This document shows, piece after piece, positions 607 to 39,577 of a stretch of 39,709 nt of DNA; within the stretch, counting starts at the first letter, position 1; every line of letters starts with the position of its first letter. The translations under genes were made by a program, and so were the position numbers. Source of the DNA: Patescibacteria group bacterium (GTDB lineage Bacteria; Patescibacteriota; Minisyncoccia; RBG-13-40-8-A); assembly GCA_043807255.1 (NCBI GenBank), contig JAZDGD010000012.1, positions 1 to 39,709 of the forward strand. The letters are read 5' to 3'. The notes under the pieces were generated by a model that was not told the DNA's origin, ran no database searches, and saw only the letters and a list, made by a program, of their open reading frames with translations.

Positions 607-627
607 CCCCGCCTCTGGCGGGGTAAA
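607..627. repeat. intergenic REP-like palindrome (TTTA-CCCCGCC-nnn-GGCGGGG family)
   Basis: CCCCGCC-TCT-GGCGGGG-TAAA; similar to the coding insertions at 27988-28011 and 29383-29407. Confidence 0.6.
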
Positions 628-2791: not shown

Positions 2792-2796
2792 TCACG

Positions 2797-21209: not shown

Positions 21210-22292
21210 ATGATTATTTTGGGCATTGAAACAAGTTGCGATGATACAGGAATTGCAATAATCGAGGCAAAACCAACAAAAACCGGTCCTGTTTTTAATA
21301 TTTTATCCAATGTTGTGTCCTCTCAAATTAAGGTTCACGCGCCATTTGGCGGGGTCGTGCCAAATTTAGCCGCGCGAGAACACTTAAAAAATATCGGACC
21401 ATGTCTAAAAACCGCCCTAAAAGAGGCAAATAAAACGATTGAAGATATTGATTTAATTGCCGTCACTTCTGGCCCGGGTCTAATCCCCTCACTTTTAATT
21501 GGGGTTAATTTTGCAAAAGCGTTGGCGTATAAATACAATATTCCCATTGTGCCTATCAACCACCTCGAGGGACACATAACCATTGCCTTCGGCAATGGAA
21601 TTTCTAAATCCAAATCTCTAATTTCTAAAAATACCTTTCCTGCAATTGCGTTATTGGTAAGCGGAGGACATACACAGTTAATTTTAATGAAGAAAATAGG
21701 AAGCTATAAAATTATTGGCGAAACAAGAGATGATGCAGCCGGAGAATGTTTTGATAAGACAGCGAAACTACTTGGACTTGAATATCCGGGAGGACCAGCC
21801 ATTTCTCGAGAAGCCGAAAAATGGAAATCCTCCTCCTTCGCTAAAGCTACGGCGGACAAGGCAATCCCCAAATTACCACGTCCAATGATGAATCAAAATA
21901 ATTTTGATTTTAGTTTTTCGGGATTAAAAACGGCAGTGCTTTATTTGGTTCGCGATGTTGGACGTCCGACGTCCAACATGATTTCCGCAATCTGCAGGGA
22001 AACCCAACAAGCGATAATCGATGTTTTAATTTCTAAAACTTTCAAGGCGGTGGAAAAATATAAAGCAAAAACCATTATTCTTTCCGGCGGAGTAGCCGCG
22101 AATGAAGAATTGCGCAAACAGTTTGCATTCAAAATTCAAAATTCAAAATTAAAAATTCAATTTTTAACTCCGGTTAAAAATTTGTGTATGGACAATGGCA
22201 CAATGATTGCCATGGCTGGATATTATAATCGAAACAAGGCAACAAAAAAATATTCATCAATTATTGCAAATACCAATTTAAGATTGTCTTAA
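21210..22292 (+). CDS. tsaD: tRNA N6-adenosine threonylcarbamoyltransferase
   Basis: GIETSCDDT, GPGL, HLEGH, SGGHT, DDAAGECFDK, SFSGLKT, GGVAAN, DNG. Confidence 0.97.
   Translation: MIILGIETSCDDTGIAIIEAKPTKTGPVFNILSNVVSSQIKVHAPFGGVVPNLAAREHLKNIGPCLKTALKEANKTIEDIDLIAVTSGPGLIPSLLIGVNFAKALAYKYNIPIVPINHLEGHITIAFGNGISKSKSLISKNTFPAIALLVSGGHTQLILMKKIGSYKIIGETRDDAAGECFDKTAKLLGLEYPGGPAISREAEKWKSSSFAKATADKAIPKLPRPMMNQNNFDFSFSGLKTAVLYLVRDVGRPTSNMISAICRETQQAIIDVLISKTFKAVEKYKAKTIILSGGVAANEELRKQFAFKIQNSKLKIQFLTPVKNLCMDNGTMIAMAGYYNRNKATKKYSSIIANTNLRLS
21955..21979. repeat. perfect 25-nt palindrome inside tsaD
   Basis: ATGTTGGACGTC-C-GACGTCCAACAT. Confidence 0.85.
22127..22161 (+). repeat. heptamer tandem repeat (ATTCAAA)x5, two units imperfect, inside tsaD
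   Basis: ATTCAAA ATTCAAA ATTCAAA ATTAAAA ATTCAAT. Confidence 0.8.
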
Positions 22293-22348
22293 AATTTTAA
22301 AAATGAGATAATATTTGTATATCTGTAATAATTTGTAATTTGTAGTAT

Positions 22349-24562
22349 ATGGAAATTCCAAAAGCATACGATCCGAAAGAGGTTGAAGGTAAAATATACA
22401 AACTCTGGGAAGAGGGCGATTTTTTTAATCCCGACAAATTGCCAAAAACGCACAAAAAACCATTTTCTATTATTATGCCCCCTCCGAACGCCAACGGTTC
22501 ACTTCATCTGGGACACGCATCGGTTGTTGCTATCGAAGACGTCATGATAAGGTACAAGAGAATGCGCGGATTTAAAACGTTGTGGTTGCCGGGAGCTGAT
22601 CATGCCGGATTTGAAACACAGGTTGTATTTGAAAAAGAATTGGAAAAAATGGGAACTAGCCGTTTTGAGATTATGAAACAAGAAAACGGTCGAGAAAAGC
22701 TTTATAAAATGATTTGGGACTTTACTCTTTCCAATAAGTCGCGAATGGAAAATCAAACCAAAGCATTGGGTGCTTCCTGTGATTGGTCACGAGAAATGTT
22801 TACGCTTGATCCAAAAATTATTAAAACCGTTTACCAAACATTTGAAAAAATGTATAACGATGGATTAGTTTATAGAGACAACAGAATTGTTAATTGGTGC
22901 ACTAAACACCAAACCGCACTTTCTGATTTAGAGGTTGGTTGGGAAGAAAAAAACGATAAATTATATTATGTAAAATATTTTTTAGTTGATAATCCCTCTG
23001 AATTTATCGTTGTTGCAACCACTCGTCCAGAAACCATCCCCGGGGATTTTGCTATTGCAGTTCACCCACAAAACAAAAAATACAAAAATTTTATTGGAAA
23101 ACATATTACCAATCCATTAATCAATAATCGCGAAAAGTACGGAAATACCATTAAAATTATTAGTGATGAAATGGTAGATAAGGATTTTGGGACTGGTGCG
23201 TTAAAAATAACCCCCGCTCACGATGCGACTGATTTTGAAATAGGAAAACGCCATTCTCTGCCAACCGATTATCAAATTATCGGATGGGATGGACGCATTA
23301 ATGCCCTGGGCGGAGCATTACAGGGAATGAAAATTTTAGAAGCCAGAGGAAAATCAATAGAAATTTTAAAACAAGCCAATGCTTTAGAAAAAATTGAAGA
23401 TTATAAACACGAAGTTTCTGTTTGTTATAAATGCAAAAACACAATTGAACCACTAATACGAAAACAATGGTTCATAAAAATGACTTCTTGTCCCAAGAAT
23501 GGCAAAAAATCATTACGTGACATAACCGTAGAGGCGGTGAAGTCTGGCAAGGTTAAATTTGTCACTAAAAAGTTCGAAAAAATATTTTATCATTGGATGA
23601 GAAATATCCGCGACTGGAATATTTCGCGACAAATTGTTTGGGGAATTCCTATTCCAATTTGGTATTGCGCCAAATGCGGAAAAGAAATTTTGCATTTTGA
23701 AAAAACTCCACCAATAAAAAAATGTCAAAATATGGATTGTAATTGTGACTCGTTTATAAAAGAAAACGATGTTTTTGATACCTGGTTCTCTTCCGGGCAA
23801 TGGCCGTTCGCTACTTTAAAAAACTGCAAACCAAACGATTTTAAACAATTTTATCCAACATCAGTTATAGAAACCGGCTGGGACATTTTATTTTTTTGGG
23901 TAGCAAGAATGATTATGTTTGGCGTTTATGTTACAGACGAAATTCCGTTTAAAAATGTTTATTTGCACGGACTGATTAGAGATAAAGACCGACAAAAAAT
24001 GTCAAAATCAAAAGACAATGCCATTGACCCATTGGGAGTTATTGATCTATATGGCGCCGACGCACTTAGAATATCATTAATCATTGGCAATGCGCCAGGC
24101 AATGATCCGATAATTTCTGAAGAGAAAATTCGTGGATATAGAAATTTTGCCAACAAGATATGGAACGTAAATAGATTTATACAGATGTTTTCGAAAGATA
24201 AAATCCTCAAAAAACCAAATCTTTCTAAAAATGACAAAAAGTTATTAACTGATTTAGAAAAATTAGTTAAAAATGTGACTGAGGACATGGAGAATTTTTC
24301 CTTTTATTTGGCGGCAGAAAAAATTTATCATTATTTCTGGCACAATTTTGCCGACAAAATTATCGAATCAAACAAAGCACGATTAAAGTCTGAAAATCCA
24401 AAAGAACGACTTACCAGTCAATATTTGCTTAATGAAATTTTGAAAACAAATCTAAAACTTCTTCATCCATTTATGCCATTTATTACTGAATCAATTTGGC
24501 AGATGAATTATAAACAAAAAAACGCACTCATAATTTCTGAGTGGCCAAAAATTAAAAAATGA
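22349..24562 (+). CDS. valS: valine--tRNA ligase (short form lacking the C-terminal coiled coil)
   Basis: PPPNANGSLHLGH, ATTRPET, GTGALKITPAH, DWNISRQ, DTWFSS, KMSKS. Confidence 0.97.
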   Translation: MEIPKAYDPKEVEGKIYKLWEEGDFFNPDKLPKTHKKPFSIIMPPPNANGSLHLGHASVVAIEDVMIRYKRMRGFKTLWLPGADHAGFETQVVFEKELEKMGTSRFEIMKQENGREKLYKMIWDFTLSNKSRMENQTKALGASCDWSREMFTLDPKIIKTVYQTFEKMYNDGLVYRDNRIVNWCTKHQTALSDLEVGWEEKNDKLYYVKYFLVDNPSEFIVVATTRPETIPGDFAIAVHPQNKKYKNFIGKHITNPLINNREKYGNTIKIISDEMVDKDFGTGALKITPAHDATDFEIGKRHSLPTDYQIIGWDGRINALGGALQGMKILEARGKSIEILKQANALEKIEDYKHEVSVCYKCKNTIEPLIRKQWFIKMTSCPKNGKKSLRDITVEAVKSGKVKFVTKKFEKIFYHWMRNIRDWNISRQIVWGIPIPIWYCAKCGKEILHFEKTPPIKKCQNMDCNCDSFIKENDVFDTWFSSGQWPFATLKNCKPNDFKQFYPTSVIETGWDILFFWVARMIMFGVYVTDEIPFKNVYLHGLIRDKDRQKMSKSKDNAIDPLGVIDLYGADALRISLIIGNAPGNDPIISEEKIRGYRNFANKIWNVNRFIQMFSKDKILKKPNLSKNDKKLLTDLEKLVKNVTEDMENFSFYLAAEKIYHYFWHNFADKIIESNKARLKSENPKERLTSQYLLNEILKTNLKLLHPFMPFITESIWQMNYKQKNALIISEWPKIKK

Positions 24563-25281
24563 TGAAACTTTTACTTTGCATTTTACTTGCTCCCCTGCCA
24601 TCAATTATTTGGTTGGCGTTCTATTTACGTAAAGATAGACACCCCGAACCAAATAAATTAATTGTAAAAATATTTTTATTAGGAGCAATGGCAATTGTTT
24701 TTGCTGCACTCTTGGAACAAGGAGTTTATCTTGGTTTAGGGGAACTTTCCCTGGCTGGAGAAATAATTCTTCTAGTGATTAGTTTTGCTTTTATTGAAGA
24801 ACTGTTAAAGTATCTCGTGGTTAAATTTGGTGTCCTAAAAAATCCCAGCTTCGATGAACCAATTGATTCGATGATATATTTGATAATTTCCGCATTAGGA
24901 TTTGCTGCGGCCGAAAACATTTATCTCTTAACAAAAATTTCTCCTTTAAAAATTCCTATTGGCGAAACAATAGAATTTATAACTACCAGATTTTTAGGTG
25001 CAACTCTCTTGCACGTACTCGCCTCTGCGATTGTGGGCTATTTTCTGGCGGCATCATTTTGTCGAAAATCAAAATTTAGAAAAACTTTAGTTTTTGGTGG
25101 ACTAATTGCCGCAACAATATTGCATTCGGTTTTTAATTATATTATAATATTAAATATAAACGAACAAATCGAGGCTTACCAAAGAAATGGTTTAATTTTT
25201 ATACTACTTCTTGGAGGGGCGATCATGGTCTCAATAATGTTTAAAAAGATTAATAAATTTAGATCAGTTTGCAAGTTATAA
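24559..25281 (+). CDS. prsW: PrsW family intramembrane metalloprotease
   Basis: HPEP, IEELLK, GFAAAEN, LLH, LHSVFN. Confidence 0.9.
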   Translation: MMKLLLCILLAPLPSIIWLAFYLRKDRHPEPNKLIVKIFLLGAMAIVFAALLEQGVYLGLGELSLAGEIILLVISFAFIEELLKYLVVKFGVLKNPSFDEPIDSMIYLIISALGFAAAENIYLLTKISPLKIPIGETIEFITTRFLGATLLHVLASAIVGYFLAASFCRKSKFRKTLVFGGLIAATILHSVFNYIIILNINEQIEAYQRNGLIFILLLGGAIMVSIMFKKINKFRSVCKL

Positions 25282-25286
25282 AAAAA

Positions 25287-25367
25287 TAATATCCGAATGA
25301 TACGAATCTGTATCCGAATCAACGAATATTCGTAGATTCGAATAAGAATTTGTAGATTCGCATAATA
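25287..25367 (+). repeat. ~81-bp palindromic intergenic element, copy 2
   Basis: ~90% identical to the reverse complement of 4589-4670 (hand alignment). Confidence 0.85.
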
Positions 25368-25372
25368 CTCAT

Positions 25373-25918
25373 ATGGCAAAATCATTTTTTGAAAAATTAA
25401 CTGGCGCATCAACAGGCGATGATTTAGAAGAAAAGGTCAACGAAGAACCACAAGAAGAAGAGACAACAACAATAAAACAACAACCAGATATCACTCCAAA
25501 AACAACAACCAGAAAACCAAAGTCGATAAAAAAAATAGAAACCATTGAAGAAGACAAAAGCTGGCTTCAAGATGCCGACGAAGGCGAGGAAGGACAGTTA
25601 ACCATTGATGTTTATCAAACGCCAACTGAAATTGTAATCAAATCAACTGTTGCCGGAGTAAAACCAGAAGACATAGACATCAGTTTTACCAACGACATGA
25701 TTACGGTTCGTGGCAGAAGAAAGAAAGAAGAAGAAATCACAACCGAAGATTATTACTATCAGGAACTTTATTGGGGAGCATTTTCTAGATCGGTTATTCT
25801 CCCAGTGGAAGTTGATGTCGACAAAGCAAAAGCAGAAATTAAAAACGGAATCCTTACGGTCCGTCTTCCTAAATCAGAAAAAATCAAAACCAAAAAAATC
25901 AAAGTCAATCTTGGATAG
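25373..25918 (+). CDS. Hsp20/alpha-crystallin small heat shock protein
   Basis: IDVYQT, AGVKPEDIDI, WGAFSRSVILP, AEIKNGILTVRLPK. Confidence 0.93.
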   Translation: MAKSFFEKLTGASTGDDLEEKVNEEPQEEETTTIKQQPDITPKTTTRKPKSIKKIETIEEDKSWLQDADEGEEGQLTIDVYQTPTEIVIKSTVAGVKPEDIDISFTNDMITVRGRRKKEEEITTEDYYYQELYWGAFSRSVILPVEVDVDKAKAEIKNGILTVRLPKSEKIKTKKIKVNLG

Positions 25919-26381
25919 TTTTGTAAATTTCTAATGTTTCGCGAGACATTTTTGACCAATCATATTTTTTGATTTGTTCGAACCCTTTTTTGATTAATTC
26001 TTCACGTATCTCCCTATTGATTAGGGCGGTTTTTATTTTTTCTGCAATATCATCAACGTTCAAGGGATTAAAATATAATACTGCATCACCCAATATTTCT
26101 GGCACACAGGTTAAATTCGAAGCAACAACCGGCACGCCTCTTTTCATCGCTTCTAGTGGCGGTAAACCAAACCCTTCGTACAAAGACGGAAAAACAAACA
26201 AACTCGCATTTTTATATAGATCGTCCAATTCTTTTTCGCTAACAAATCCCGTAATCAAAATTAAACTATATTTTAATCCATCTTGCCTTATTTTTTCGCA
26301 CGCTAACTTTAACCGCTCCAAATTTTTGTGCGGATAATCATTGCCAACGTATAAAATATATTGATTAGCTAATTCCTTCAT
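25905..26381 (-). CDS. GT4 glycosyltransferase C-terminal half (split gene or pseudogene fragment)
   Basis: YILYVG..PHKN, FPSLYEGFGLPPLEAM; own ATG overlapping the upstream half. Confidence 0.75.
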   Translation of the reverse strand: MKELANQYILYVGNDYPHKNLERLKLACEKIRQDGLKYSLILITGFVSEKELDDLYKNASLFVFPSLYEGFGLPPLEAMKRGVPVVASNLTCVPEILGDAVLYFNPLNVDDIAEKIKTALINREIREELIKKGFEQIKKYDWSKMSRETLEIYKTIQD

Positions 26382-26877
26382 AAATTACCTTGATTTTATT
26401 TTCATTAACACTAGGATAATATTTTAATATATCTTTTTTTGTATATTCTGAAATCGCAATTATTTTCTCTGAATTTTTGATTGCACGCTTAAAGACAATT
26501 TTATATACCCAAAACTTGATACCTTTGCGTATTGGAAAATAACGTAAAATTAAATCATGAATCGTAACTATAAATTTTTTACGATACAAAATCGGCACAT
26601 TAAAATGCGTAAAGTGCATTAAGTTCAATTTATATTTTTTTAATTGCAAGGGAAACAAGACTTGCTCTTTAATCCCATACCATCGATAATTAGCTAATAC
26701 TTTGTGAAAACTTTTATTTTGTGGTTTATATTCGTCGAAACTATTTTTGCGTAAAAAAACAAAAAATTCAATTTCATTGTTTGAAATTTTTTCCATTTCT
26801 TTAATTAAATTTTCCGCATACCTGCCAAATCCCTTGTCTTTTGGTCCAAAGAACCTAGCATCTATTCCTATTCGCAT
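26365..26877 (-). CDS. GT4 glycosyltransferase N-terminal half (split gene or pseudogene fragment)
   Basis: MRIGIDAR, VTIHDL, IAISEYTKKDI, ends at KVIYEGIS*. Confidence 0.75.
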   Translation of the reverse strand: MRIGIDARFFGPKDKGFGRYAENLIKEMEKISNNEIEFFVFLRKNSFDEYKPQNKSFHKVLANYRWYGIKEQVLFPLQLKKYKLNLMHFTHFNVPILYRKKFIVTIHDLILRYFPIRKGIKFWVYKIVFKRAIKNSEKIIAISEYTKKDILKYYPSVNENKIKVIYEGIS

Positions 26878-28115
26878 AATTTTAAAATTTCTTTAGTTGT
26901 TTTGTCCCAATTAAATTGTTTAGATTTTTCTATCCCCCTTTTACTCAAATAATCGCCCAATTCTTTGTTCTCTAAAATTTCTTTTATTGCCCAACTTATT
27001 TCGTTTGGATTCTCTGGATTTATCATAATCGCTGAATCGCCTACAACCTCACTCAAGGACGATTTATTGGAAACAATTACTGGCACCCCACAGGCCATTG
27101 CTTCTAACGGCGGCAAGCCAAATCCCTCAAAAAAACTTGGATAAACAAAAATTTTAGCTAAATTATATAAATACAATTTATCGTCCTCTTCAACAAATCC
27201 GGTAAAAATAATATCGTCTTTGAATTCTGATTTTTGGGCTTTTTCAAAGACTTCTTTATAGAGCCACCCCTTTGCTCCAGCGATAACTAGTTTTAATTTT
27301 GAAAAGTCACAAACTTCATCTTTGTGTCCCCTAACCACGCCCTCGAATCCTTGCCAATTGACATCCAAAACTTTCCCTTGTTTTTCTTTTTTAACTTCTT
27401 CGAATGCTTCAATTAATCCCAAAATGTTTTTTCTTGGCTCAATCGTGCCAAAATATAATACGAAATCAATACATGAATTCGCCTCATCGGCGAACAGGCC
27501 GTATTTTTTTGATATTTCTAATAATTTAATATTGTTTTGATTTATCGGCCTGAATTTTTCATCAATGCCGGGATAAATAACCTTTATTTTTGAGGGGTCA
27601 ATTTTATAGAAATCAATTAGATCTTTTTTTGTCGATTCCGAAATCGCAATAATCGAATCTGCTTTTCGCGCCTGTTTTCCGGGAAACATAAATCTATGCC
27701 ATAGTCTTTTTTGCCAAGAAAAAAACCTGGGAAACCTTAAAAACGATAAGTCGTAAAAAATCATTATTCGTTTAGTTTTTTTAGACAAGGGCGTAATTAA
27801 AAAATGTGGACTAACAAAAACATCCACGCCGCCTAGAATTTTGTCTAATTTTGGAAATTTAACAAATCTCAAAATCAAATCAAAAATTCTATTTGGAATT
27901 CTGATTTTTTTAATTTTAACGTTTTTATTTTTAAACCAAGAATAATCGAGTTTAAGTTTTTTAAACCCACTATAAAACAATTTATATTTTACCCCGTCCT
28001 TGGCAGGGTTGTTAGCTCCGTTTAACAACAATCTCGATAGTAAATTAATTAGATAATCTTCCACTCCCGTCCTCGCTTCTTTTGCCAACACCCTAATATC
28101 AATTCCAATAGTCAT
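26868..28115 (-). CDS. GT4 glycosyltransferase (MtfB-like)
   Basis: GIDIR, GTIEPRKN, YPSFFEGFGLPPLEAMACG. Confidence 0.93.
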   Translation of the reverse strand: MTIGIDIRVLAKEARTGVEDYLINLLSRLLLNGANNPAKDGVKYKLFYSGFKKLKLDYSWFKNKNVKIKKIRIPNRIFDLILRFVKFPKLDKILGGVDVFVSPHFLITPLSKKTKRIMIFYDLSFLRFPRFFSWQKRLWHRFMFPGKQARKADSIIAISESTKKDLIDFYKIDPSKIKVIYPGIDEKFRPINQNNIKLLEISKKYGLFADEANSCIDFVLYFGTIEPRKNILGLIEAFEEVKKEKQGKVLDVNWQGFEGVVRGHKDEVCDFSKLKLVIAGAKGWLYKEVFEKAQKSEFKDDIIFTGFVEEDDKLYLYNLAKIFVYPSFFEGFGLPPLEAMACGVPVIVSNKSSLSEVVGDSAIMINPENPNEISWAIKEILENKELGDYLSKRGIEKSKQFNWDKTTKEILKLCE

Positions 28116-28134
28116 AATTTTATATGTTTACACC

Positions 28135-28167
28135 ATAATGCCACGACCTCGCAAGTCGTGGCATTAT
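28135..28167. repeat. REP-like palindrome at the RAYT 3' end
   Basis: 13-bp arms ATAATGCCACGAC / GTCGTGGCATTAT around CTCGCAA; contains the RAYT stop codon. Confidence 0.85.
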
Positions 28168-28832
28168 TCTCCTATATTGTCTATTTTCATTTCTTCCAGC
28201 CATTTATTTATATCTTTCTTGTATTTCTCTTGTCCACCAAATACATCTAATAATAATTCTCTGTTTGTAACCGATGGAAAATTTTTCTTGCCACAATAAT
28301 CTAAATGACTAGACCATCTATAATTATTTAAATATTTTATTGCTTTATCGTGATCTTTTATTTTTCTGTTTCGCCATTCTGAAAATTCCATATCAAGAGG
28401 ATTAAGATGAATATAATATGGAAGGTTTAAAAAATGATTGGATTTACTAATTAGAATTGATTTATAACGACTTTCGAATAAAGCACCCTTACGTTTATGT
28501 TTTATATTAAAATATTTGGCATATCCCATGTCTAGTTTTCTCAAAAATTTTGAAATTCCATTTTCAATAATCGGACCGAGCAATAAATGAAAATGATTCG
28601 GCATTAAACAAAAAGCATAAATATTCACCATTGGTTTTCTTGGCTGTTTAGTACTACGACCTACGAGGTCGTTGTCTTTATTGGATGCTTTAAAACGATC
28701 AGACGTAGAACCGATAACTCTGTTATCATTAAATTCGTATAAATCATGAATGAATCTTAAATGATCTTGTTGATCAAGAAATATTTTGCGTTTATCTACG
28801 CCCCTATTCAGGACATGATATATGTCAGCCAT
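28164..28832 (-). mobile_element. REP-associated tyrosine transposase (RAYT / Y1_Tnp HUH family)
   Basis: YHVLNRG, CLMPNHFHLL (HUH), GALFESRYKS, YIHLNP (catalytic Tyr), YRWSS; flanked by palindromes. Confidence 0.9.
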
Positions 28833-28853
28833 ATTTAACTTAATTTTACACTG

Positions 28854-28878
28854 AATGCCACGACCTCGCAAGTCGTAG
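28854..28878. repeat. REP-like palindrome at the RAYT 5' end
   Basis: 28854-28876 AATGCCACGACCTCGCAAGTCGT is identical to 28137-28159 (23-nt direct repeat). Confidence 0.85.
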
Positions 28879-28880
28879 TT

Positions 28881-30005
28881 TTATTTCTTAAATTCTTTAT
28901 AATTTTTATCGATAAATTCTTTGATTTTTTGTTTAAAATTTTCTTTATCAAACTTTAAGGCATGTTGATAAATATCCCCTGAATTAAATTTGAGGCCATC
29001 AAATCCCTTAACCGCATCGATTAACGACCCAACGGTCTGTTCATCGAAAAATACGCCCGTTTTGCCCTCTAAAATGCTCTCCAACGCGCCTCCGCCCCTA
29101 TAGGCGATAACTGGCCTCCCGCAGGCCATTGCCTCTAGGGCGACAATTCCAAAATCCTCTTCTTGAGGGAAGATTAATGCTCGTGAATTTTGATAATATT
29201 CCTTTAATTCCTGATTGCTTTTTTCGCCCAAAAACTCTATGTTCCAATTCGACATTTTCTTTAACTTCCTCATTTCCGGACCATTGCCAATAATCTTTAA
29301 CGGCAATTCTAACTTGTTAAATGCTTCAATTGCCATATCGAATCTTTTGTATGGCAAAAGTCGTCCAACCATTAAAAAATAGTTTACCCCGCTTTTTGCG
29401 GGGCTTGCCCCATCAATGACTTTCTTTATTCCAAAATTCTCTGTATCAACTGGCGGATGAATTACTTCTGATTCTTGTTTATAATATTTTTTAATTCTTT
29501 GTGCCACAAAACTAGAATTACAAATAAATTTATCAACTCGGTACGCCGCTTCTCTGTCCCACAATCTTAAATAATTCATAAAAATTGGCACAAAAAATTT
29601 TGCCAATTTGAACATACTAAACTCTCGAACATACTTATGACTATCGTCCCAAGCATAACGAATTGGTGTGTGACAATAACAAATATGTAAAGTATCTGGT
29701 TTTGTAATTACTCCCTTACCAAATGCAGCTGAATCAGACAACACAATATCGTAATCCGATAAATCTAATCTTTCTACTGCCAAGGGCATCAATGGTGGAA
29801 ATAATCGATGATGCTTGCGGATAAATGGCAATTTTTGTAAAAATGAAACTTTAATTTTTTTATTGGGAAAAAATTTGTCAACAATTTTTTTGTCATAAAG
29901 CAAAGTATAAATCGGCGCATCGGGAAAAATTTCCAGAAACGCCTCCAACACCTTCTCTGCTCCACCATATTGATTCAGGTAATCATGTACTAATGCTATT
30001 TTCAT
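28881..30005 (-). CDS. GT4 glycosyltransferase (WbaZ-like)
   Basis: MKIALVHDYLNQYGGAEKVL, YCHTPIRYAW, EEDFGIVALEAMACG. Confidence 0.93.
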   Translation of the reverse strand: MKIALVHDYLNQYGGAEKVLEAFLEIFPDAPIYTLLYDKKIVDKFFPNKKIKVSFLQKLPFIRKHHRLFPPLMPLAVERLDLSDYDIVLSDSAAFGKGVITKPDTLHICYCHTPIRYAWDDSHKYVREFSMFKLAKFFVPIFMNYLRLWDREAAYRVDKFICNSSFVAQRIKKYYKQESEVIHPPVDTENFGIKKVIDGASPAKSGVNYFLMVGRLLPYKRFDMAIEAFNKLELPLKIIGNGPEMRKLKKMSNWNIEFLGEKSNQELKEYYQNSRALIFPQEEDFGIVALEAMACGRPVIAYRGGGALESILEGKTGVFFDEQTVGSLIDAVKGFDGLKFNSGDIYQHALKFDKENFKQKIKEFIDKNYKEFKK

Positions 30006-30006
30006 A

Positions 30007-31401
30007 TTAACAGGCCGATCTATCTTTAAATAAAACAATTATTGTTTTTAATAAAATATAAATATCTTTTAACAATTTCCAGTTTTCAATATAATAAGTA
30101 TCTAGTTTAACCTCTTCTTCAAATGGCAAATCCGAACTCCCACTAATTTGTGCCATGCCCGTCATCCCTGGCTTAATCAATAAAACCTTTTTGTGGTGTT
30201 TTTCATATTTTTCTATCTCATCTGGCTGATGTGGCCTTGGACCAACCAAGCTCATTTCTCCTTTTAAAACATTAATCAATTGTGGCAACTCATCTAGTCG
30301 TGTTTTTCTTAAAATTTTACCAAATTTTGTTACGCGCGGATCATTCTTCATTTTGAACAACGGACCATCCTTGCGTTCGTTTTGTTCTTGTAATTGTTCC
30401 TTGACTGCTTCGGCGTTTTTTATCATCGATCGGAATTTGTAAAGTTTAAATTCTTGTCGCTGACTAATCCTTTTTAGCCCAACCAAAACCGAACCCCTTG
30501 AATCTAATTTAATTATAATCGCAAGAACCAAAAACGCGGGGGACAAAATAATCAAACCGACCAAAGAACCAAAGAAATCAAACCACCTTTTTAATATTCT
30601 CCCCCATCCATCAAGCGGGGTTCTTTTTATTTCAATTAATGGCACTCCATCAAAAGTATTCATTTCTACGTTCGTGGTATGCGCTTGAAAAAGATTGGGC
30701 ACAAATTTAAACCCAATACGTTGTTCTTCGCAAAAATCTAAAAGATCTAAAACATCGCTTCTTTCATAATGCGGACTGGCCAAAATAACTTCATCGATCT
30801 GCGGATTATTATCTAAAATAAAATTCTTAATTTCTTCAGAAGTTGTTTCGAAAAATATTTTTACTATTCTATAACCAAGGTCAGGATTTCTTTTTATTTC
30901 TTCAATAACCCTTTTACTTAGCCTGTCTTCCCCGATGATAATTACATTTCGAACTCCAACATTATATTTGCCAACCATAAATCTTTGAAGTTTCTTAACG
31001 AAAAAACGACCCAGTCCAACAAAAATTATTGCTATTATCCAGGCCATTAGAAGAATAAATCGAGAATCAAAAAGTGCTTGATTAAAAAAGATATAAAGAA
31101 TAATTACCAACACCGTTGCCGAAATTGCAACAATGATTTGTAAAAATTCTTTGAATAATTTTTTCTGAACACTGATGTTATAAAGTCCAGAAATCGCAAA
31201 AATTAAGACACCAAAGAACGATACGATTAGAACTAAAAACAAATATTTTTCAAATGGCAAGCTTAAAGAAAAAAGTACTGGTCTCCATTGAGAAACCAGC
31301 GGACTTACGCGTAAAAAATAAGCCACAACACCGGCCATGGTGAGCATAAAAAAATCAACCGGAACAAGCAAGGCACCAAATATAAGTTCAGATTTCTTCA
31401 T
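30007..31401 (-). CDS. polyprenyl glycosylphosphotransferase (WcaJ/WbaP-like sugar transferase)
   Basis: KRWFD, KFRSM, DPRVT, LDELPQLINVLKGEMSLVGPRP, KPGMTG; four N-terminal TMs. Confidence 0.93.
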   Translation of the reverse strand: MKKSELIFGALLVPVDFFMLTMAGVVAYFLRVSPLVSQWRPVLFSLSLPFEKYLFLVLIVSFFGVLIFAISGLYNISVQKKLFKEFLQIIVAISATVLVIILYIFFNQALFDSRFILLMAWIIAIIFVGLGRFFVKKLQRFMVGKYNVGVRNVIIIGEDRLSKRVIEEIKRNPDLGYRIVKIFFETTSEEIKNFILDNNPQIDEVILASPHYERSDVLDLLDFCEEQRIGFKFVPNLFQAHTTNVEMNTFDGVPLIEIKRTPLDGWGRILKRWFDFFGSLVGLIILSPAFLVLAIIIKLDSRGSVLVGLKRISQRQEFKLYKFRSMIKNAEAVKEQLQEQNERKDGPLFKMKNDPRVTKFGKILRKTRLDELPQLINVLKGEMSLVGPRPHQPDEIEKYEKHHKKVLLIKPGMTGMAQISGSSDLPFEEEVKLDTYYIENWKLLKDIYILLKTIIVLFKDRSAC

Positions 31402-31473
31402 TACCCCCATTCTATCGCATTTTTATGTTTTTTTCAATCAAAAAACCTCAATTTTTAATTGAGATTCTTTGAC

Positions 31474-31900
31474 GTTGGGCAAGCAATAAGCCGAATTCTG
31501 TCTACCGAGTCTGACTCGGTTCAATGATCATTTGTCTGATCACGACATTGCTGTCGGATTCAAGCGAACTACCTTGCCTTCGACTACGCTCGGGCCAGGT
31601 CACTATAAAAGTGATAGATTTTAACCTGAGTTCTTATCGAAGGTACTTGTTCTTGCACCCACCTAGGAATTTAGCCGTTTCACTTTCCATATTACTATGG
31701 AATTCGCCCTAATTCCGACTTCGTCGGAACGGGCGTCCGAACCCTTTAGGGTTCTAGGACGTCACTGTTCGCATCCCTATCCTTACGGACGGTGGACGTT
31801 ATCCACTAAGCTGCTGTCCGACGTTACATCGGACGAGTGTTCGGACTTTCCTCCCCTAATCGCGTTTGACGCGACGGAGCGATCATCTCGCTTACCCAAC
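31474..31900 (-). ncRNA. rnpB: RNase P RNA
   Basis: GAGGAAAGTCC near the 5' end, ACAGAATTCGGCTTA near the 3' end, P1 GTTGGGTAAGC/GCTTGCCCAAC; extended -10 TGTTACTAT upstream and a hairpin plus T-tract downstream. Confidence 0.93.
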
Positions 31901-31931
31901 AAAAATATAGTAACAAGTTTTAATTATCGTG

Positions 31932-32378
31932 TCAAATGCCCGGCAGACCACTGATTTCTTTTTCTTTTGAATCTAATGCTCTGTTTACTAATTTGTCGGC
32001 GTCGGCGTTTTCGTTACGGGGAATATGTATGAATGCAACTTTTGCAAAATCAATCTTCAAATTCCAAACTTTCAAAAACAATTGTTCAATTCTTCTATCT
32101 AAAATTTTATATTGACCATTCATTTGTCTGGCCAAAAACTCACTATCGGTTCTAATCTCAACTTCCATCGTTTTAGCTTTTTTCCCGCCAAATAAAAGTT
32201 TTGCTTTTTGTAATCCAAAAATCACCGCTTCGTACTCCGCTTCGTTATTTGTTGCTCTACCAATTTTTTCTCCATATTCTTTAATCACTTTCCCCTTCTC
32301 ATCACAAAAAACAATCCCAATCCCCGCTGGTCCTGGATTCCCCCTACTCCCCCCGTCTGTATAAATAATTGTTTTCAT
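31932..32378 (-). CDS. rnhA: ribonuclease HI family protein
   Basis: YTDGGSRGNPGPAG, TNNEAEY, DSE, N..AD.L.N; ATGA overlap with the recJ stop. Confidence 0.92.
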   Translation of the reverse strand: MKTIIYTDGGSRGNPGPAGIGIVFCDEKGKVIKEYGEKIGRATNNEAEYEAVIFGLQKAKLLFGGKKAKTMEVEIRTDSEFLARQMNGQYKILDRRIEQLFLKVWNLKIDFAKVAFIHIPRNENADADKLVNRALDSKEKEISGLPGI

Positions 32379-34096
32379 ATCTTTTTTAAATCGCTTATTT
32401 TTAATTGTAATTCTTTGTTGCCATTCCACTCGTTGGACAGCATTTCAAACACAATATCAACCCTGTCTCCTAATTCTATCTTATCACAAGAATCTACCAA
32501 ATTAAAGCCAATTGCACCGAATTTTTTGGTGCCGGTTTCGGTTTCTTTTTCCAACGACAATTTCAAATGATTCTCTTTCGAGCCCACATTCCTCATGCCA
32601 TTAATCTTTAAGTCTTTAAGTAAAAACAATGGCCTAGAATTTTCTCCTCCAAATGGTTCAAATTTCGCAATTTCATCAAAAACCTTCCAATTTAAATCAT
32701 CAACAATCATTTCCGCATCAATATTCAAAAATGCTGTCATGTCTGTTTTTTTTATCTTCTTTTCGGCAACTTTCTCTAGAATTTTTTTGATTTTTTCTAA
32801 GTTACATACATCCGCTCTAAACGCGCCAGCAAATGGATGGCCACCATATTCATCTAACAACTCCTTACATTCATCCAGCGCTTTAATTACGTCAAAACCA
32901 GCAATTCCCCCTCTCGCCGAACAAACGGCATGGTTTTTAGACAACTGACAAATAAATGCTGGCATCCAAAATTCATCTTTTAATTTCTGCGCAACCAACC
33001 CCACTAATCCCGATGTCCATGTTTCATCTCCTTCAAAAATAATCTTGCTTTTGTTTGAATCCTTTTTCACTCTTTCTCGTGCTTCTTTAATAATTCTTTC
33101 CATGTGTCGTTGTCTTTCTTGATTCCGAGTTTCAAGTTGTTGTGATAATCTGTCTGCTTCAGCGATATTTTTAGTTAGAAGCAATTCAAAGGCGACGATA
33201 CCATGATCGACACGAGAAGCGGCGTTTATTCTCGGACCAAGAATAAATCCTATGGTGTATGTAGTTAGATTCCCCGTCACTCGCGCCTTTTCCATTAAAA
33301 TCTTTAATCCCAATCTTTTTGTTTGTGACAGGACAATTAGTCCATATTTTACAAGCGTTCTGTTTTCGCCAAATAAAAGCATGGAATCCGTTACAGTTGA
33401 AATCGCTACCAAATCCAATAACCATTTTTCCCAAGAAATTGGGAGTTTTTTTGTAATGCGTACTGCTTGCAATAATTTGAATGCCACTCCAGCACCAGAC
33501 AATTCATTAAATGGATATTTACATTGTTTTTGTTTTGGGTCAATAATTGCAAATGCTTTTGGTAATTTGGGCCTGCCTGCCGATGAGGCAGGAATTTCGT
33601 GGTGATCAACAATAATTACGTCAATGCCTAGTTTATTTGCTAATGCCACTTCTTCAACATCAGTAACTCCACAATCAACAGTTAAAACAAGGGTTATTTT
33701 TTTCTTTGAAATATCTTCTATTGATTTTAAATTTAGTCCATATCCTTCAGCGTTCCTGTCGGGAATATAAACCTCTGGCTTAATATTATAAACTTCTAGA
33801 ATTTCATGCAGAATGATTCCGCCACAGATTCCATCAGCATCGTAATCAGCAAAAATCGCTACTTTTTCATTGTTTTTTTCCGCTTTTTCGAGTCGCTTTA
33901 TGGTTTTTTTGACATCTTTTAACAAAAACGGATCATGCAAATCTTGATCATAGTCGGGACTAAAAAACTCATCAATTGCTTTTTGAGTTTTAAGTCCCCT
34001 GTCCCAAAGCAACTGAAGAGTTAATTTTGAAAATTCCGGAAATTTCTCTAAAAATTCTTTAGGCGCCTTTTTATTTATTTTCCAAACTTTATTCAT
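32375..34096 (-). CDS. recJ: single-stranded-DNA exonuclease RecJ
   Basis: DYDADG, TVDCG, DHH, GPRINAASR, GGHPFA, EPFG. Confidence 0.95.
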   Translation of the reverse strand: MNKVWKINKKAPKEFLEKFPEFSKLTLQLLWDRGLKTQKAIDEFFSPDYDQDLHDPFLLKDVKKTIKRLEKAEKNNEKVAIFADYDADGICGGIILHEILEVYNIKPEVYIPDRNAEGYGLNLKSIEDISKKKITLVLTVDCGVTDVEEVALANKLGIDVIIVDHHEIPASSAGRPKLPKAFAIIDPKQKQCKYPFNELSGAGVAFKLLQAVRITKKLPISWEKWLLDLVAISTVTDSMLLFGENRTLVKYGLIVLSQTKRLGLKILMEKARVTGNLTTYTIGFILGPRINAASRVDHGIVAFELLLTKNIAEADRLSQQLETRNQERQRHMERIIKEARERVKKDSNKSKIIFEGDETWTSGLVGLVAQKLKDEFWMPAFICQLSKNHAVCSARGGIAGFDVIKALDECKELLDEYGGHPFAGAFRADVCNLEKIKKILEKVAEKKIKKTDMTAFLNIDAEMIVDDLNWKVFDEIAKFEPFGGENSRPLFLLKDLKINGMRNVGSKENHLKLSLEKETETGTKKFGAIGFNLVDSCDKIELGDRVDIVFEMLSNEWNGNKELQLKISDLKKI

Positions 34097-34099
34097 TAT

Positions 34100-35272
34100 T
34101 TATTTCCTCAGTGCCTCAATTCCTGGCAAAGTGCCTTCGCTTAAATAATCCAACATTGCGCCACCGCCAGTGGACATCCAGTCAAAGACTTTTTCTTTAT
34201 TATTCTCATTTATGAAGGCATTAGTGTCTCCCCCGCCAACAATTGCATATGCCCCACTTTTATCAATTGCCTCAATTAGTTCCTTGGAGGCAATATCGAA
34301 TGGTTTTTGCGTGATCAGCCCCAAAGGACCATTCCAAACAATTGTTTTTGAGTTTAAAATCAAATCACTGAACAGGTGGACTGTTTTTGGCCCGACGTCT
34401 AATGCTTTTTCGTACCATTCTAAGGGAGCAACGTCCCTATATGTTACGCCCTTGCCGTCCCAAATTCCCAAATCAAGAGGTAAAAATAATTTTGATCCAC
34501 TGGCTGATGGATTTAAATTTATTTTTTTGATTTCATTAAAAGAATCTTTGTCGATAATTGATTCGCCCATAGAAATGCCCTGACTGGCAAAAATTGTATT
34601 TGATAGTGCCCCGCCAACCAAAACTTTGTCTGCAATTTTTAAAAATTTATTAATTACTTTTATTTTTGTTTCCATTTTCGCTCCACCAATAATTGCAATC
34701 AATGGTTTTTCCGGTTTATTTAAAATTTTGTTTAATTCTTCAATTTCTTTTTCTAAAATAAATCCCGCCGTTGATGGTAAAAATTTTGGAATGCCAACAA
34801 TTGAAGCATGCTCCCTGTGAGAATTAGCAAACGCTTCATTAACGTAAATGTTCCCCAATTTCGCCAATTTTTCAGCAAATTCAGACGAGTTTTCTTCTTC
34901 TTCTTTCCAAAATCTAAGGTTTTCTAAAAGCAAAATATCTCCAAACTCCATTTTTTTTATTTTGTCCTCAACCCTTCTCCCTAAAATGTCAGTTGAAAAT
35001 AAAATCTTTTTATTTAATAATTTTCCCAATTCTTCAGCAATCGGCTTTAAGGACATTTTACTATTTTTTTCTCCCCGTGGTCGACCAAGGTGCGAAATCA
35101 AAATAATTTTTGCTTTTTGTTTAATTAAATATTCTATGGTCAATAAGCTGTTTTTGATTCTAAAATTATCTAAAACATTTCCTTTTTCATCGACCGGAAC
35201 ATCAAAATCAACGCGTACTAATACGCGCTTATTTTTAACGTCAATCTTTTTTAAACTTTTAATTTTCTTCAT
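34100..35272 (-). CDS. pgk: phosphoglycerate kinase
   Basis: RVDFDVP, SHLGRP, LLENLRF, GGAK, WNGPLG, GGGDT, STGGGA. Confidence 0.97.
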   Translation of the reverse strand: MKKIKSLKKIDVKNKRVLVRVDFDVPVDEKGNVLDNFRIKNSLLTIEYLIKQKAKIILISHLGRPRGEKNSKMSLKPIAEELGKLLNKKILFSTDILGRRVEDKIKKMEFGDILLLENLRFWKEEEENSSEFAEKLAKLGNIYVNEAFANSHREHASIVGIPKFLPSTAGFILEKEIEELNKILNKPEKPLIAIIGGAKMETKIKVINKFLKIADKVLVGGALSNTIFASQGISMGESIIDKDSFNEIKKINLNPSASGSKLFLPLDLGIWDGKGVTYRDVAPLEWYEKALDVGPKTVHLFSDLILNSKTIVWNGPLGLITQKPFDIASKELIEAIDKSGAYAIVGGGDTNAFINENNKEKVFDWMSTGGGAMLDYLSEGTLPGIEALRK

Positions 35273-35275
35273 TAT

Positions 35276-35971
35276 TTAAATAACTTGTATGGTTTTCACA
35301 AATTCTTCTGGTTTTAAACTCGCCCCGCCGACTAATGCTCCTTCATATCCGACACCAAGATAATCATTGATTATTTTACTGTCTACGCTTCCGCCATAAA
35401 TTATCTTCCCATTGAATCTTTGTTTAATAAAATCAAGTTTTTGTTTAGCATAATCAGCCGAACAAATTTCTCCGCCACTGGTGCTTATTGCCCAGACCGG
35501 TTCGTAAGCAATAATTATTTTATTCTTGTCTTCTTCTGGCATGCCATCTAAATCTCTTTTTAATTGATTTTCGATGACCGTTTCTGCGTTTTCCCCTTTT
35601 CTTTCTCCGACACATAAAATCGGAATTAATCCTGCGCCTAACACAGATTTTAATTTCTTATTAATTATTTCATCTGTTTCATTAAAATAATTTCTCCTTT
35701 CAGAGTGCCCAATAATTACATATTCAATTCCCATGTCTTTAATCATTTTGGGGCTAATTTCTCCGGTATATGGTCCTTTTTCTTCCCAAAAACAGTTCTG
35801 AGCACATAGTTTTGCTTTTTTTAAAAATGGCAACCAAATAAACGGGGCGGCAATCAAAACTTCCACGTTTTTTGCTTTTTTAATGGTTTTTTTGATACCC
35901 CCAAAAAGTTTTCTTGCTTTCCCTAAAGACGACGGGTTCATTTTCCAATTTGCGATGATTAATGGTTTCAT
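35276..35971 (-). CDS. tpiA: triosephosphate isomerase
   Basis: ANWKMN, GHSERR, AYEPVWAI, YGGSV, LVGGASL. Confidence 0.97.
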   Translation of the reverse strand: MKPLIIANWKMNPSSLGKARKLFGGIKKTIKKAKNVEVLIAAPFIWLPFLKKAKLCAQNCFWEEKGPYTGEISPKMIKDMGIEYVIIGHSERRNYFNETDEIINKKLKSVLGAGLIPILCVGERKGENAETVIENQLKRDLDGMPEEDKNKIIIAYEPVWAISTSGGEICSADYAKQKLDFIKQRFNGKIIYGGSVDSKIINDYLGVGYEGALVGGASLKPEEFVKTIQVI

Positions 35972-35975
35972 ATTT

Positions 35976-37034
35976 TTAAATAAATTTTCTCAAAAACTTA
36001 GCAACCTCTTCTGGTTTAATTGTTAATACCTCAACGCCCGTTCCAAGTTCAAATCCTGCCCAAGTATTTGTTTTTGGCAATATTTCAATGTGCCAGTGAT
36101 AATATCCATAATCTTTACCATCACAGGGTGCAGTATGAATAAAAAAATTATAAGCAGGATTCTTTAATCCTTTATATAAGCCATACAATGCTTTTTGAAG
36201 TGCTTCGGCCAAATATTTTATTTCTATTTCAGTTATTTTTTCGAAATTTGAAAGGTGTTTGCGTGGATAAATTCTTAATTCAAAATTTACTCTTGGCACA
36301 AATGGCGCAAAAACTACAAAATATTCGTTTTGAAATATGCATCTTTTTTCTTCCTTCTCCCATTCAATCATTTCACAATGCACACATTTTTTATTTTCAT
36401 TATGATACTTCCTCGCGCCATCTAAACTCCTTCTTGTATCGGCTGGTAAAATCGGCATAGCTACCAACTGCGTATGCGGATGAGGAATGCTTGCCCCCGC
36501 CTCTTTACCATGATTATGAAATATGAAAATATAATTTACAAAACGATGATCCATTAATGCCAAATATCTTTCTTGGTATGCTTTTATGACCTCTTCGACG
36601 TTTTCTATGGGCATTATTGCTAAATGTTTTTTATGATCCCTGGTAATAATTACCTCGTGAAAACCATTGCCCTGCATTAAATTATATGGCCCCTCTTTAC
36701 AAACTTCAAATGAACCACTGGGAACCAACATTGGATATTTGTTTTTTATAACCTGCAAACTCCAATCTTTGACTAATTTTTTTGCTCCTTTAATTTTTAT
36801 TTTTTTATTGTCCTTATAATAAATCAAAACCGGCTCTTCATGGCCAGACGATTGTGGATCTTCAAATGGACATTCTGAAATTGGTTGTTCAAATTTTTCT
36901 TCACTTTTGTTAGCAAAAAATTGCGGTTTTTTAGCGCGACCAGTTGCAATAATCATCCAATCCCCACTAACAAGGTCTTGTCTTAATTCGGAACCACTAG
37001 ACAATTTAGTTTTCTTTAAATTATTTAATTTCAT
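35976..37034 (-). CDS. galT: galactose-1-phosphate uridylyltransferase family protein
   Basis: CPF, NKYP, GASIPHPHTQ, HWHIEI, AGFELGTG. Confidence 0.92.
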   Translation of the reverse strand: MKLNNLKKTKLSSGSELRQDLVSGDWMIIATGRAKKPQFFANKSEEKFEQPISECPFEDPQSSGHEEPVLIYYKDNKKIKIKGAKKLVKDWSLQVIKNKYPMLVPSGSFEVCKEGPYNLMQGNGFHEVIITRDHKKHLAIMPIENVEEVIKAYQERYLALMDHRFVNYIFIFHNHGKEAGASIPHPHTQLVAMPILPADTRRSLDGARKYHNENKKCVHCEMIEWEKEEKRCIFQNEYFVVFAPFVPRVNFELRIYPRKHLSNFEKITEIEIKYLAEALQKALYGLYKGLKNPAYNFFIHTAPCDGKDYGYYHWHIEILPKTNTWAGFELGTGVEVLTIKPEEVAKFLRKFI

Positions 37035-37806
37035 TTATCTTATATTTGTTGGTTATAAAATTATACTTGATTTTTAAAAGCTCAACAAAGGTTTTAATAT
37101 AAGAACTTAATTTAACCTTGCTTTCGCCTGGATTGTGCCAATCGACTGGCATTTCTTTGGTTTTAAATTTCATTTTCTTGGCTAATGCTAAAATTTCAAA
37201 ATCAAAACCCCAGCGCGTTAATGTTTGTTTTGGAAATATTGCTTCTGCTGATTTTTGATTAAAACACTTGAATCCACGCTGTGAATCTTTTATTTCCCAA
37301 AGACCAGCAACAATTCGAATAATATATTTTGAAACTCTCCCCAAAAATCTTCTATACCAAGCTGATTTCTCTTCAATCTTAGATCCCTTAACCTCAATTG
37401 ATCCAATCACAATATCATTACCATTATTAAATTCTGGCCAAAACAAATCCAGGTGATCAATTTTTGTAGAATTATCAGCATCCATAAACAATCGATATTC
37501 ACCCCTTGCTTCGAGCATGCCTTGTTTGGTTACATATCCTTTGCCGTGGTTTTCTTTGTTGTCAATAACTCTCAAATTTTTAATTAATTCGCCTGTTTTT
37601 GTGGCCACAATAGCTGTATTGTCCTTTGACCCATCGCTAATAACTATAATTTCGTAATTACCTCGCCCGCCATCGCTACGCGAAGGCGTTGCGGGCGGGT
37701 AGTTTTGTTGTGACAAATATCTGTCTATATCTAAAAGCGTTACCGCAATTCTTTTTTCTTCGTTATACGCCGGTATTACAACCGACAAATGTATTTTATT
37801 GTCCAT
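37021..37806 (-). CDS. GT2 polyprenyl-phosphate beta-glucosyltransferase (Alg5-like)
   Basis: VIPAYNEEKRI, DGSKD, NHGKG, FMDADNST, DSQRGFK, WGFDFE; start at MDNKI after a TGGTATAAT promoter. Confidence 0.9.
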   Translation of the reverse strand: MDNKIHLSVVIPAYNEEKRIAVTLLDIDRYLSQQNYPPATPSRSDGGRGNYEIIVISDGSKDNTAIVATKTGELIKNLRVIDNKENHGKGYVTKQGMLEARGEYRLFMDADNSTKIDHLDLFWPEFNNGNDIVIGSIEVKGSKIEEKSAWYRRFLGRVSKYIIRIVAGLWEIKDSQRGFKCFNQKSAEAIFPKQTLTRWGFDFEILALAKKMKFKTKEMPVDWHNPGESKVKLSSYIKTFVELLKIKYNFITNKYKINEIK

Positions 37807-37808
37807 AC

Positions 37809-39176: not shown

Positions 39177-39186
39177 CGGGGTTTGA
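39158..39186. other. 11-bp hairpin at the avd stop / 3' of the TR
   Basis: TCAAACCCCGT-CCAAATA-ACGGGGTTTGA. Confidence 0.75.
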
Positions 39187-39201
39187 TAAAAATAAAACCA
39201 G

Positions 39202-39569: not shown

Positions 39570-39577
39570 CGAATCAT

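Follow-up and report, generated by a model that had tools for sequence, protein, structure and literature searches.

Several housekeeping proteins of a Patescibacteria group bacterium contain odd short peptides that are probably the read-through translation of palindromes resembling repetitive extragenic palindromic (REP) elements that landed in the genes encoding them. The DNA in question, hereafter the window, is the entire 39.7-kb contig C12 of this bacterium's genome (GenBank assembly GCA_043807255.1; here G000), which comprises 556 kb in 12 contigs at 35% GC. Eight elements of 17–39 nt lie in window genes that Pfam assigns to TsaD, two family 4 glycosyltransferases (GT4a and GT4b), RecJ, PGK, and GT2. 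An earlier note on this DNA had read them as in-frame insertions spread by REP-associated tyrosine transposases (RAYTs) into surface loops, a second route of protein diversification next to a diversity-generating retroelement (DGR). The insertions themselves are borne out: all eight peptides are found in intact open reading frames (ORFs), all eight elements fold as hairpins, and every one coincides with an indel when orthologs are aligned. The eight elements are not, however, one family or the output of one system. Several families are present, and only one element is connected to a transposase gene.

In tsaD, on the forward strand, the peptide SSFAKATADK (element tsaD-1; 21831–21860, residues 208–217) is specified by an imperfect palindrome that belongs to the CCKCC..CGCYAARGC..GGMGG family. 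The peptide DVGRPTSN (element tsaD-2; 21954–21977, residues 249–256) is specified by a perfect 25-nt palindrome at 21955..21979 with an 11-bp stem and a 3-nt loop (folding z score −3.9). The other six elements are on the reverse strand. GT4a carries LFADEANS (27474–27497, residues 207–214; TTCGCC-GATGA-GGCGAA, z −2.8) and NPAKDGV (27990–28010, residues 36–42; ACCCTGCC..GACGGGGT followed by AAA), while GT4b carries SPAKSGV (29385–29405; CCCCGC-AAAAA-GCGGGG plus TAAA, z −2.7). RecJ contains PASSAGRP (33569–33592; CCTGCC-TCATC-GGCAGG plus CAGG), PGK contains NPSASGS (34493–34513; ATCCAT-CAGCCA-GTGGAT, z −4.1), and GT2 contains PPATPSRSDGGRG, encoded by a 39-nt nested palindrome (37660–37698; z −2.7). 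When the fold of each element was compared with those of 200 shuffles, five elements were equaled by no more than 3 shuffles, and tsaD-1, NPAKDGV, and the recJ element by 14–15. Perfect stems of at least 6 bp occur in only three of the eight; the other five include a mismatch or a wobble pair.

Evidence that the peptides are additions comes from orthologs taken from up to 30 relatives and aligned to each host protein. Every one of the eight peptides is a lineage-specific indel that the closest relatives lack. Specifically, NPSASGS adds four codons to pgk and occurs in 0 of 24 relatives, and the GT2 peptide adds 13 codons and occurs in 0 of 26. In GT4a, NPAKDGV adds five codons and LFADEANS six, the latter measured against relative G002, and neither is found in 21 relatives. 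SPAKSGV adds approximately four to five codons to GT4b and is present in no aligned relative. PASSAGRP adds six codons to recJ compared with G002 (92% identical) and G001, and it is present in 2 of 24 relatives, G005 and G010. Both tsaD peptides reside in loops of variable length.

Several of the insertion sites are hot spots. The GT4a linker that houses LFADEANS contains different hairpins in four relatives, and in G003 a similar stem (TTCACC..GGCGAA) is present there in another reading frame. Likewise, the GT2 loop harbors other inserts in two relatives. Recurrence of hairpins at the same loops across genomes (the GT4a linker, the GT2 loop, and the tsaD loops) is a point in favor of an adaptive system dedicated to peptide insertion, in which RAYT-driven REP hairpins would diversify surface loops alongside a DGR. 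Recurrent loops, however, are also what a filter for tolerance predicts. Moreover, the hosts of the inserts are cytoplasmic housekeeping enzymes (TsaD, RecJ, PGK, ArgRS, SecA, and RecR) rather than surface or binding proteins, and no hypervariability was seen.

Structural models indicate where in the proteins some of the inserts fall. AlphaFold models were built from the ortholog alignments for TsaD (predicted local distance difference test score, pLDDT, 91) and GT4a (pLDDT 86). In the TsaD model, SSFAKATADK overlaps the segment 209–216, in which pLDDT is below 50, and DVGRPTSN forms the turn joining helices 237–250 and 255–284. In the GT4a model, NPAKDGV falls within the coil 32–42, the block of lowest confidence (pLDDT 53), and LFADEANS falls within the coil 205–217. 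All four modeled insertion sites are predicted to be loops between secondary-structure elements, and two of the four have the lowest confidence in their respective models. To this extent, the predicted structures support placement in loops. A third tsaD hairpin, absent from the earlier list (21580–21598; 8-bp stem, residues 124–130), adjoins a low-confidence loop, 130–135, in a region that varies in length among orthologs. More distant TsaD relatives, sampled at the class level (L019–L029), possess a 30- to 45-residue in-frame insertion after approximately residue 74, together with low-complexity inserts rich in Lys, Ser, Phe, Gln, and Asn in other loops. Thus, loop insertion in TsaD is widespread and extends beyond GC-rich hairpins.

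Hairpins of this type occur throughout G000. A strict genome-wide scan (perfect stem of at least 6 bp, at least 5 G/C per arm, loop of 3–9 nt) identified 231 perfect GC-rich hairpins, versus 9, 7, 8, 8, and 11 in five local shuffles. Merging overlaps leaves 208 loci. Intergenic DNA accounts for 103 of them and the deep interior of long ORFs for 54, spread over 40 of the 337 ORFs of at least 200 amino acids; another 34 fall in shorter ORFs or close to the ends of ORFs, and 17 are at edges. By our own crude ORF map, drawn without a gene caller, hairpin density is 17.3 per 10 kb in intergenic DNA and 1.5 per 10 kb in genes, an 11-fold depletion. In every genic copy examined, the frame is kept and stop codons are absent. 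A test for lengths divisible by three, suggested previously, cannot discriminate here, since any insert in an intact ORF must be a multiple of three; a reading-frame test, presented below, was used in its place. The idea of a second diversification route finds no support in these data: genes are depleted of hairpins 11-fold, and one family displays frame filtering. Depletion, loop location, and frame bias instead fit selfish or neutral repeats passing through a selective filter. On the read-through explanation, an insert would have survived only if it kept the frame, introduced no stop, fell in a tolerant loop, and encoded a harmless peptide. We regard a dedicated adaptive system as very unlikely.

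In several intergenic regions of G000, palindromes of different families lie side by side (C9:34410–34610; C4:46194–46991; C4:63330–63487; C7:19318–19540; C5:6148–6240). These clusters look as if hairpins attract more hairpins.

The proposal of multiple repeat families holds for most of the elements. Five of the eight are multi-copy in G000, and a sixth recurs in other genomes; the hairpins of pgk and LFADEANS alone are single-copy in the sense that the earlier note had named as damaging to its case. The family represented in recJ, CCTGCC..GGCAGG(CAGG), has 15 perfect copies in G000, 11 of which are in ORFs. It is present in 19 of 31 genomes, with 0–33 hairpins per genome against 0–1 for the reversed pattern, used as a control. 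The CCCCGC..GCGGGG family, to which NPAKDGV and SPAKSGV correspond in type, likewise has 15 perfect copies, 6 of them in ORFs. TAAA adjoins the stem in 8 of the 15, as it does in both coding copies, and the NPAKDGV element has the GGGGTAAA end in common with this family. Cores shared with intergenic DNA had been suggested for these elements, and the hairpin scan and family comparison locate such a copy, of the CCCCGC...GCGGGGTAAA family, at 607..623; the shared type can be written CCCYGC...GGGGTAAA. The corresponding match of the GT2 element to 660–680 is weak. The GT2 39-mer is single-copy in G000, and its 24-nt core, allowing up to three mismatches, was found six times elsewhere in the class, in 4 of 200 further genomes; the reversed pattern gave no match. 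One GT2-type copy is read in the same frame, as PPATSSRSDGGQA, in a 492-amino acid ORF of G005. Two GT2-type copies are located inside tRNA gene clusters (L190 and L191, in G005:C22 and G146:C3; approximately 1501–1524). Each follows sequence resembling the 5′ half of a tRNA (acceptor and D arms), one not called by ARAGORN. At the elements in the window, Rfam models produced no match at gathering threshold; the only matches were to tRNAs and RNase P RNA.

Elements lacking kin raise the alternative that hairpins arose locally, by template switching or slippage in replication or repair. The pgk and LFADEANS hairpins have no other copy in G000, and for pgk, a search of 15 other genomes of the order returned a single match with two mismatches, approximately what we estimate for chance. 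The 5′ arm of the pgk hairpin, AATCCA, overlaps codons already present in relatives (AAT CCT). A further hint of local events is an 18-nt tandem duplication (TSHMIP TSHMIP) directly 3′ of the palindrome inserted in the tsaD gene of G010 (L006). Local templates nevertheless fail to explain inserts that are far richer in GC than their AT-rich surroundings, and at least six of the eight elements have kin elsewhere in G000 or in other genomes. Local origin is therefore unlikely in general, and if it applies, it is to the orphans at least that it would apply.

The most widely dispersed element is the 24-nt element exemplified by tsaD-1. In G000, the family has nine copies, all within ORFs, and eight are read in the SSFAKATADK frame. 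From our own reading of the sequences, the hosts presumably include ArgRS, SecA, RecR, and a GT4 paralog. Of the 121 genomes scanned in the class, 71 contain the pattern, with one control match overall. Records with the exact 24-mer number at least 120 and come from many phyla; among the matches listed are Bradyrhizobium, Maricaulis, Acidobacteriota, Verrucomicrobia, Bacteroidetes, and several lineages of the candidate phyla radiation. An inverted copy is often nearby in those records. Rfam gave no match at 10 loci containing the element (E up to 0.1), and a literature search with four strings from it retrieved no printed occurrence.

How the 24-nt element is read bears on whether the inserts are translated. 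Among relatives, 31 matches in 30 loci comprise 11 copies outside ORFs and 20 coding copies, of which 11 are sense-1, 2 sense-0, 1 sense-2, 3 antisense-1, and 3 antisense-2. Since the element is used in five frames and orientations, the repeated unit is the DNA, not the peptide. One frame nonetheless dominates: SFAKA[ST]A[DE]K is encoded by 11 of the 20 coding copies in relatives and by 8 of 9 in G000. Given five open frames, naive binomial P values, which ignore relatedness, are 6e-4 and 2e-5, respectively. Such a bias would follow from production of the peptides together with poorer tolerance of the Arg-rich alternatives, and we infer that the inserts are translated. A family found mostly in one reading frame could also be counted in favor of an adaptive insertion system.

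The frame bias speaks against another alternative, namely that the inserts are never translated, being removed by ribosome bypass or mRNA excision. Yeast mitochondria provide the precedent: they contain GC clusters and so-called byp elements, and byp elements are skipped by the ribosome. As in that system, GC-rich hairpins are found here in an AT-rich genome. The bias is, however, sensible only if translation occurs, and the genic copies examined are all in frame and free of stops. A third GT4 gene in the window (25905–26877, reverse strand) is split into two overlapping ORFs, the N-terminal one matching Glyco_transf_4 and the C-terminal one Glycos_transf_1. The linker, an insertion hot spot in the paralog, is missing, and the frame shifts there. 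No hairpin is present at the junction in this gene, the only split one in the window, a further point against bypass, which we consider highly improbable.

Changes within the stems raise the possibility that hairpins are kept for their RNA or DNA structure, for example for mRNA stability, pausing, or protein binding, with the peptides as by-products. The recJ stem of G000 (CCTGCC/GGCAGG) differs from that of G005 (CCCAC/GTGGG) by two compensatory pair changes, and stems within families co-vary (e.g., CCGCC/GGCGG versus CCTCC/GGAGG). Co-variation is, however, equally expected if copies are replaced by other members of a family. Mismatches on the sense strand show no excess of G.U over A.C (4 versus 6, small numbers), both orientations are found in genes, the recJ copy of G010 is decayed, and no Rfam family matches. 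A structural role seems quite unlikely as the reason for the inserts.

A link between inserted palindromes and an enzyme is visible in one case. G000 has six genes of the Y1 transposase family (PF01797), one of them in the window. The window gene (28164–28871, reverse strand) encodes a 235-amino acid RAYT-like Y1 (HUH) protein that scores 33 bits against Pfam Y1_Tnp (cutoff 23). It is bracketed by palindromes at 28135–28167 on its 3′ side (13-bp stem, 7-nt loop) and at 28858–28878 on its 5′ side (one mismatch). An in-frame copy in inverted orientation, read as NDLVGRS, lies within the gene (28654–28674, reverse strand). This layout is general: all six Y1 genes of G000 have their own palindrome on both the 5′ and the 3′ side and one in-frame internal copy. 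The internal copy occupies the same alignment position in each, between the YEFND and H-x-H motifs at approximately residue 60–80; the H-x-H motif is present in all six proteins. With up to three mismatches allowed, copy numbers of the associated palindrome families are 7 (A), 21 (B), 13 (C), 9 (D), 5 (F), and 3 (W). Judged by eye, the 5′ copy of the window repeat ends in GTCGTAG and the family A stem contains CGTC; families B, C, D, and F have neither GTAG nor CGTC at a fixed end.

The same arrangement of flanking and internal copies is found at 9 of 10 RAYT-like loci of relatives, six by the perfect-hairpin scan and three by eye; the exception is L178. Within a genome, the copies agree with one another even as the repeat changes between genomes. 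In the orthologous cassettes downstream of GT4b, the stems are ACGAC in G000, TACGAC in G008, and GTGGAC in G001, and in each, flanking and internal copies match. The Y1 cassette separates the two GT4 genes in G000, G001, and G008. It is absent from G002 and eight other relatives, in which the two GT4 genes abut. No Y1 gene was found anywhere in G002, a single contig that is 97% complete.

Of the eight coding elements, tsaD-2 is the one tied to this system. It shares an identical core with the repeat that both brackets and resides in the Y1 gene at C1:5829–6527 (seven copies). At the same site in tsaD, G010 has the variant that brackets its own Y1 gene, G014 has a decayed version, and G005, a congener of G010, has an empty site (AAT|ATT). 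The pattern could reflect a single site targeted more than once, or old copies giving way to the current variant. RAYT drive, as proposed for the insertions, is retained for tsaD-2, by association with the C1 gene, and is not sustained for the other seven; for at least two families, it is contradicted. Six Y1 genes in a 0.56-Mb genome could be taken to favor an adaptive insertion system; against it, only one element in eight is tied to a Y1 gene. The window Y1 gene's own repeat matches none of the eight elements.

We propose that at least three kinds of element underlie the read-through peptides. The first kind consists of perfect palindromes of 21–45 nt with 3- to 4-nt loops, each the private repeat of one Y1 gene. 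These, including tsaD-2, would be copied as single-stranded hairpins by their Y1 enzymes, by analogy with REP/RAYT and IS200/IS605 systems. The second kind comprises the short or imperfect families, CCTGCC..GGCAGG, CCCCGC..GGGGTAAA, the 24-nt tsaD-1 element, and the 39-nt GT2 element. They are dispersed over distant genomes without a visible tie to Y1 genes, and they may spread by mobilization in trans, recombination, or repair-linked copying. The third kind is the orphans of pgk and LFADEANS, which would be the sole survivors of families now extinct or products of local origin. Transposition itself we infer.

More tentatively, two layers may coexist: Y1 genes, each with a recognition hairpin that it keeps within itself, and short hairpins that cross phyla and need no Y1 enzyme. 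We consider this possible, though doubtful. The hairpin inside each Y1 gene would then refer back to the gene that holds it, for example as a master copy or as an autoregulatory site. Such an arrangement could explain how each genome's own variant replaces older copies, even inside tsaD. The 24-nt element, identical from Bradyrhizobium to G000, could have spread via an unrecognized enzyme or a universal side reaction of repair or replication. If the two-layer idea is true, such hairpins would generally supply the essential proteins of ultra-small, AT-rich genomes with new loop residues.

Several observations weigh against the explanation by landed REP-like palindromes. Seven of the eight elements match no Y1-flanking repeat of G000, and the pgk and LFADEANS hairpins have no second copy there. 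The recJ insert is common to G000 and the genus g4 and absent from G001 and G002, a distribution that calls for gain twice at the same codon or, alternatively, for multiple exact losses. Comparison of G000 with G002, G001, G005, and G010 revealed neither a transposition event nor a target duplication nor a defined insertion boundary. Two complete genomes with 17 and 12 copies of the 24-nt element have no PF01797 match; in three further genomes, no Y1 gene occurs within several kilobases of its copies, and clustered copies share no neighboring gene in five regions of three genomes. Across 31 related genomes, counts of CCTGCC hairpins and of Y1 genes are uncorrelated (rho 0.09, P 0.63; descriptive only, as the genomes are related): seven genomes have the hairpins without a Y1 match, and eight show the reverse. 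The Y1 proteins themselves are divergent. Phe replaces the aligned Tyr, which we take to be the catalytic residue, in two of the six, and the window protein scores 38 bits against the NCBIfam model REP_Tyr_transpos (NF047646), whose cutoff is 80. Finally, the densities underlying the genic depletion carry the uncertainty of the crude ORF map.

In their organization, these repeats have much in common with REP/REPIN–RAYT systems (REPtrons): the palindromes are short, multi-copy, mostly intergenic, and often arranged as inverted doublets or clusters. They accompany single, diverged Y1/HUH genes, each bracketed by its own repeat, and several repeat–gene pairs coexist in one genome. In contrast to REPtrons, copies per family are few (3–21), many copies are in frame in essential genes (54 loci in 40 ORFs), and every Y1 gene of G000 has an in-frame copy at one fixed position. 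The window Y1 protein falls below the cutoff of the NCBI RAYT model, a consistent GTAG tag is not seen by eye, and the host genome is a 0.56-Mb AT-rich one.

Rickettsia palindromic elements (RPEs) provide a second likeness. In both settings, the genome is reduced and AT-rich, and its conserved genes contain in-frame palindromes, which orthologs lack in eight of eight cases here and which are tolerated in loops; the likeness is one of description. RPE-1 is approximately 100–150 nt long, whereas the elements described here are 15–40 nt. RPEs are not known to have a partner transposase; elements of the first kind have Y1 genes. Similarly, the yeast mitochondrial GC clusters and byp elements are GC-rich palindromes scattered over an AT-rich genome, some in protein genes. 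Those are organellar, and unlike byp, the frame conservation and frame bias seen here point to translation.

A further parallel is with intragenic GTAG and CGTC REPs, which occur also in repair genes and encode extra residues (Di Nocera et al. 2013, PMC3733652). According to that paper, CGTC REPs have no dedicated transposase, and repeat abundance is independent of tyrosine-transposase genes; RPE-4 and RPE-6 of Rickettsia are equated with them. The short families here resemble CGTC REPs as so described, in that they have neither a Y1 partner nor a relation between counts. The cases given there, from Opitutus, Rickettsia, Thauera, and others, are in more than half of instances dimers or groups encoding 20–30 amino acids; compared by description only, ours are mostly single hairpins of 4–13 codons. 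The inserts of G000 appear to be a small-scale version of bacterial repeats already known rather than a dedicated protein-diversifying system.

Our literature search found no report of in-frame palindromes or of REP–RAYT systems in this bacterial group. Four features differ from known systems: the inserts are small, they are frequent in the essential genes of so minimal a genome, each Y1 gene has its fixed in-frame copy, and the 24-nt element is shared across phyla. REP-type repeats are defined as extragenic; here, 54 of the 208 GC-rich hairpin loci, approximately one in four, lie deep in long ORFs, including tsaD, recJ, pgk, secA, argS, and recR. The inserts constitute a natural experiment that asks which protein loops accept 4–13 foreign residues. 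They call for caution in annotating and aligning such genomes, because odd peptides can be repeat-derived. They also supply testable pairs of Y1 enzyme and hairpin, and the internal copies of Y1 genes, together with a 24-nt hairpin that lacks a Y1 gene, bear on how transposase-less REPs spread.

Other features of the window deserve brief mention. A 33-nt, AT-rich perfect palindrome with a 15-bp stem (2322–2354) lies in the ORF 1481–2428 (reverse strand) and is unlike the GC-rich families. A tRNA gene (2721–2791) lies inside the 5′ part of a 492-amino acid ORF with a TTG start (2656–4134, forward strand); given this overlap, the real start of the ORF is probably further downstream. The class A RNase P RNA (31472–31898, reverse strand) matches over 427 nt a model of 367 positions and may contain extra inserted sequence. 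The reverse transcriptase gene (37809–38885, reverse strand; Pfam RVT_1) scores under all NCBIfam cutoffs, with a group II intron reverse transcriptase as its top match. Regarding a DGR partner, no repeat pair of at least 40 nt was found in 30000–39709, nor was a template/variable pair found within the contig. A 26-nt exact repeat occurs at 39201–39226 and 39684–39709, with a hairpin of 11-bp stem (39158–39186) beside one copy. The second copy reaches the contig end, and the repeat may represent a DGR template/variable pair truncated there.

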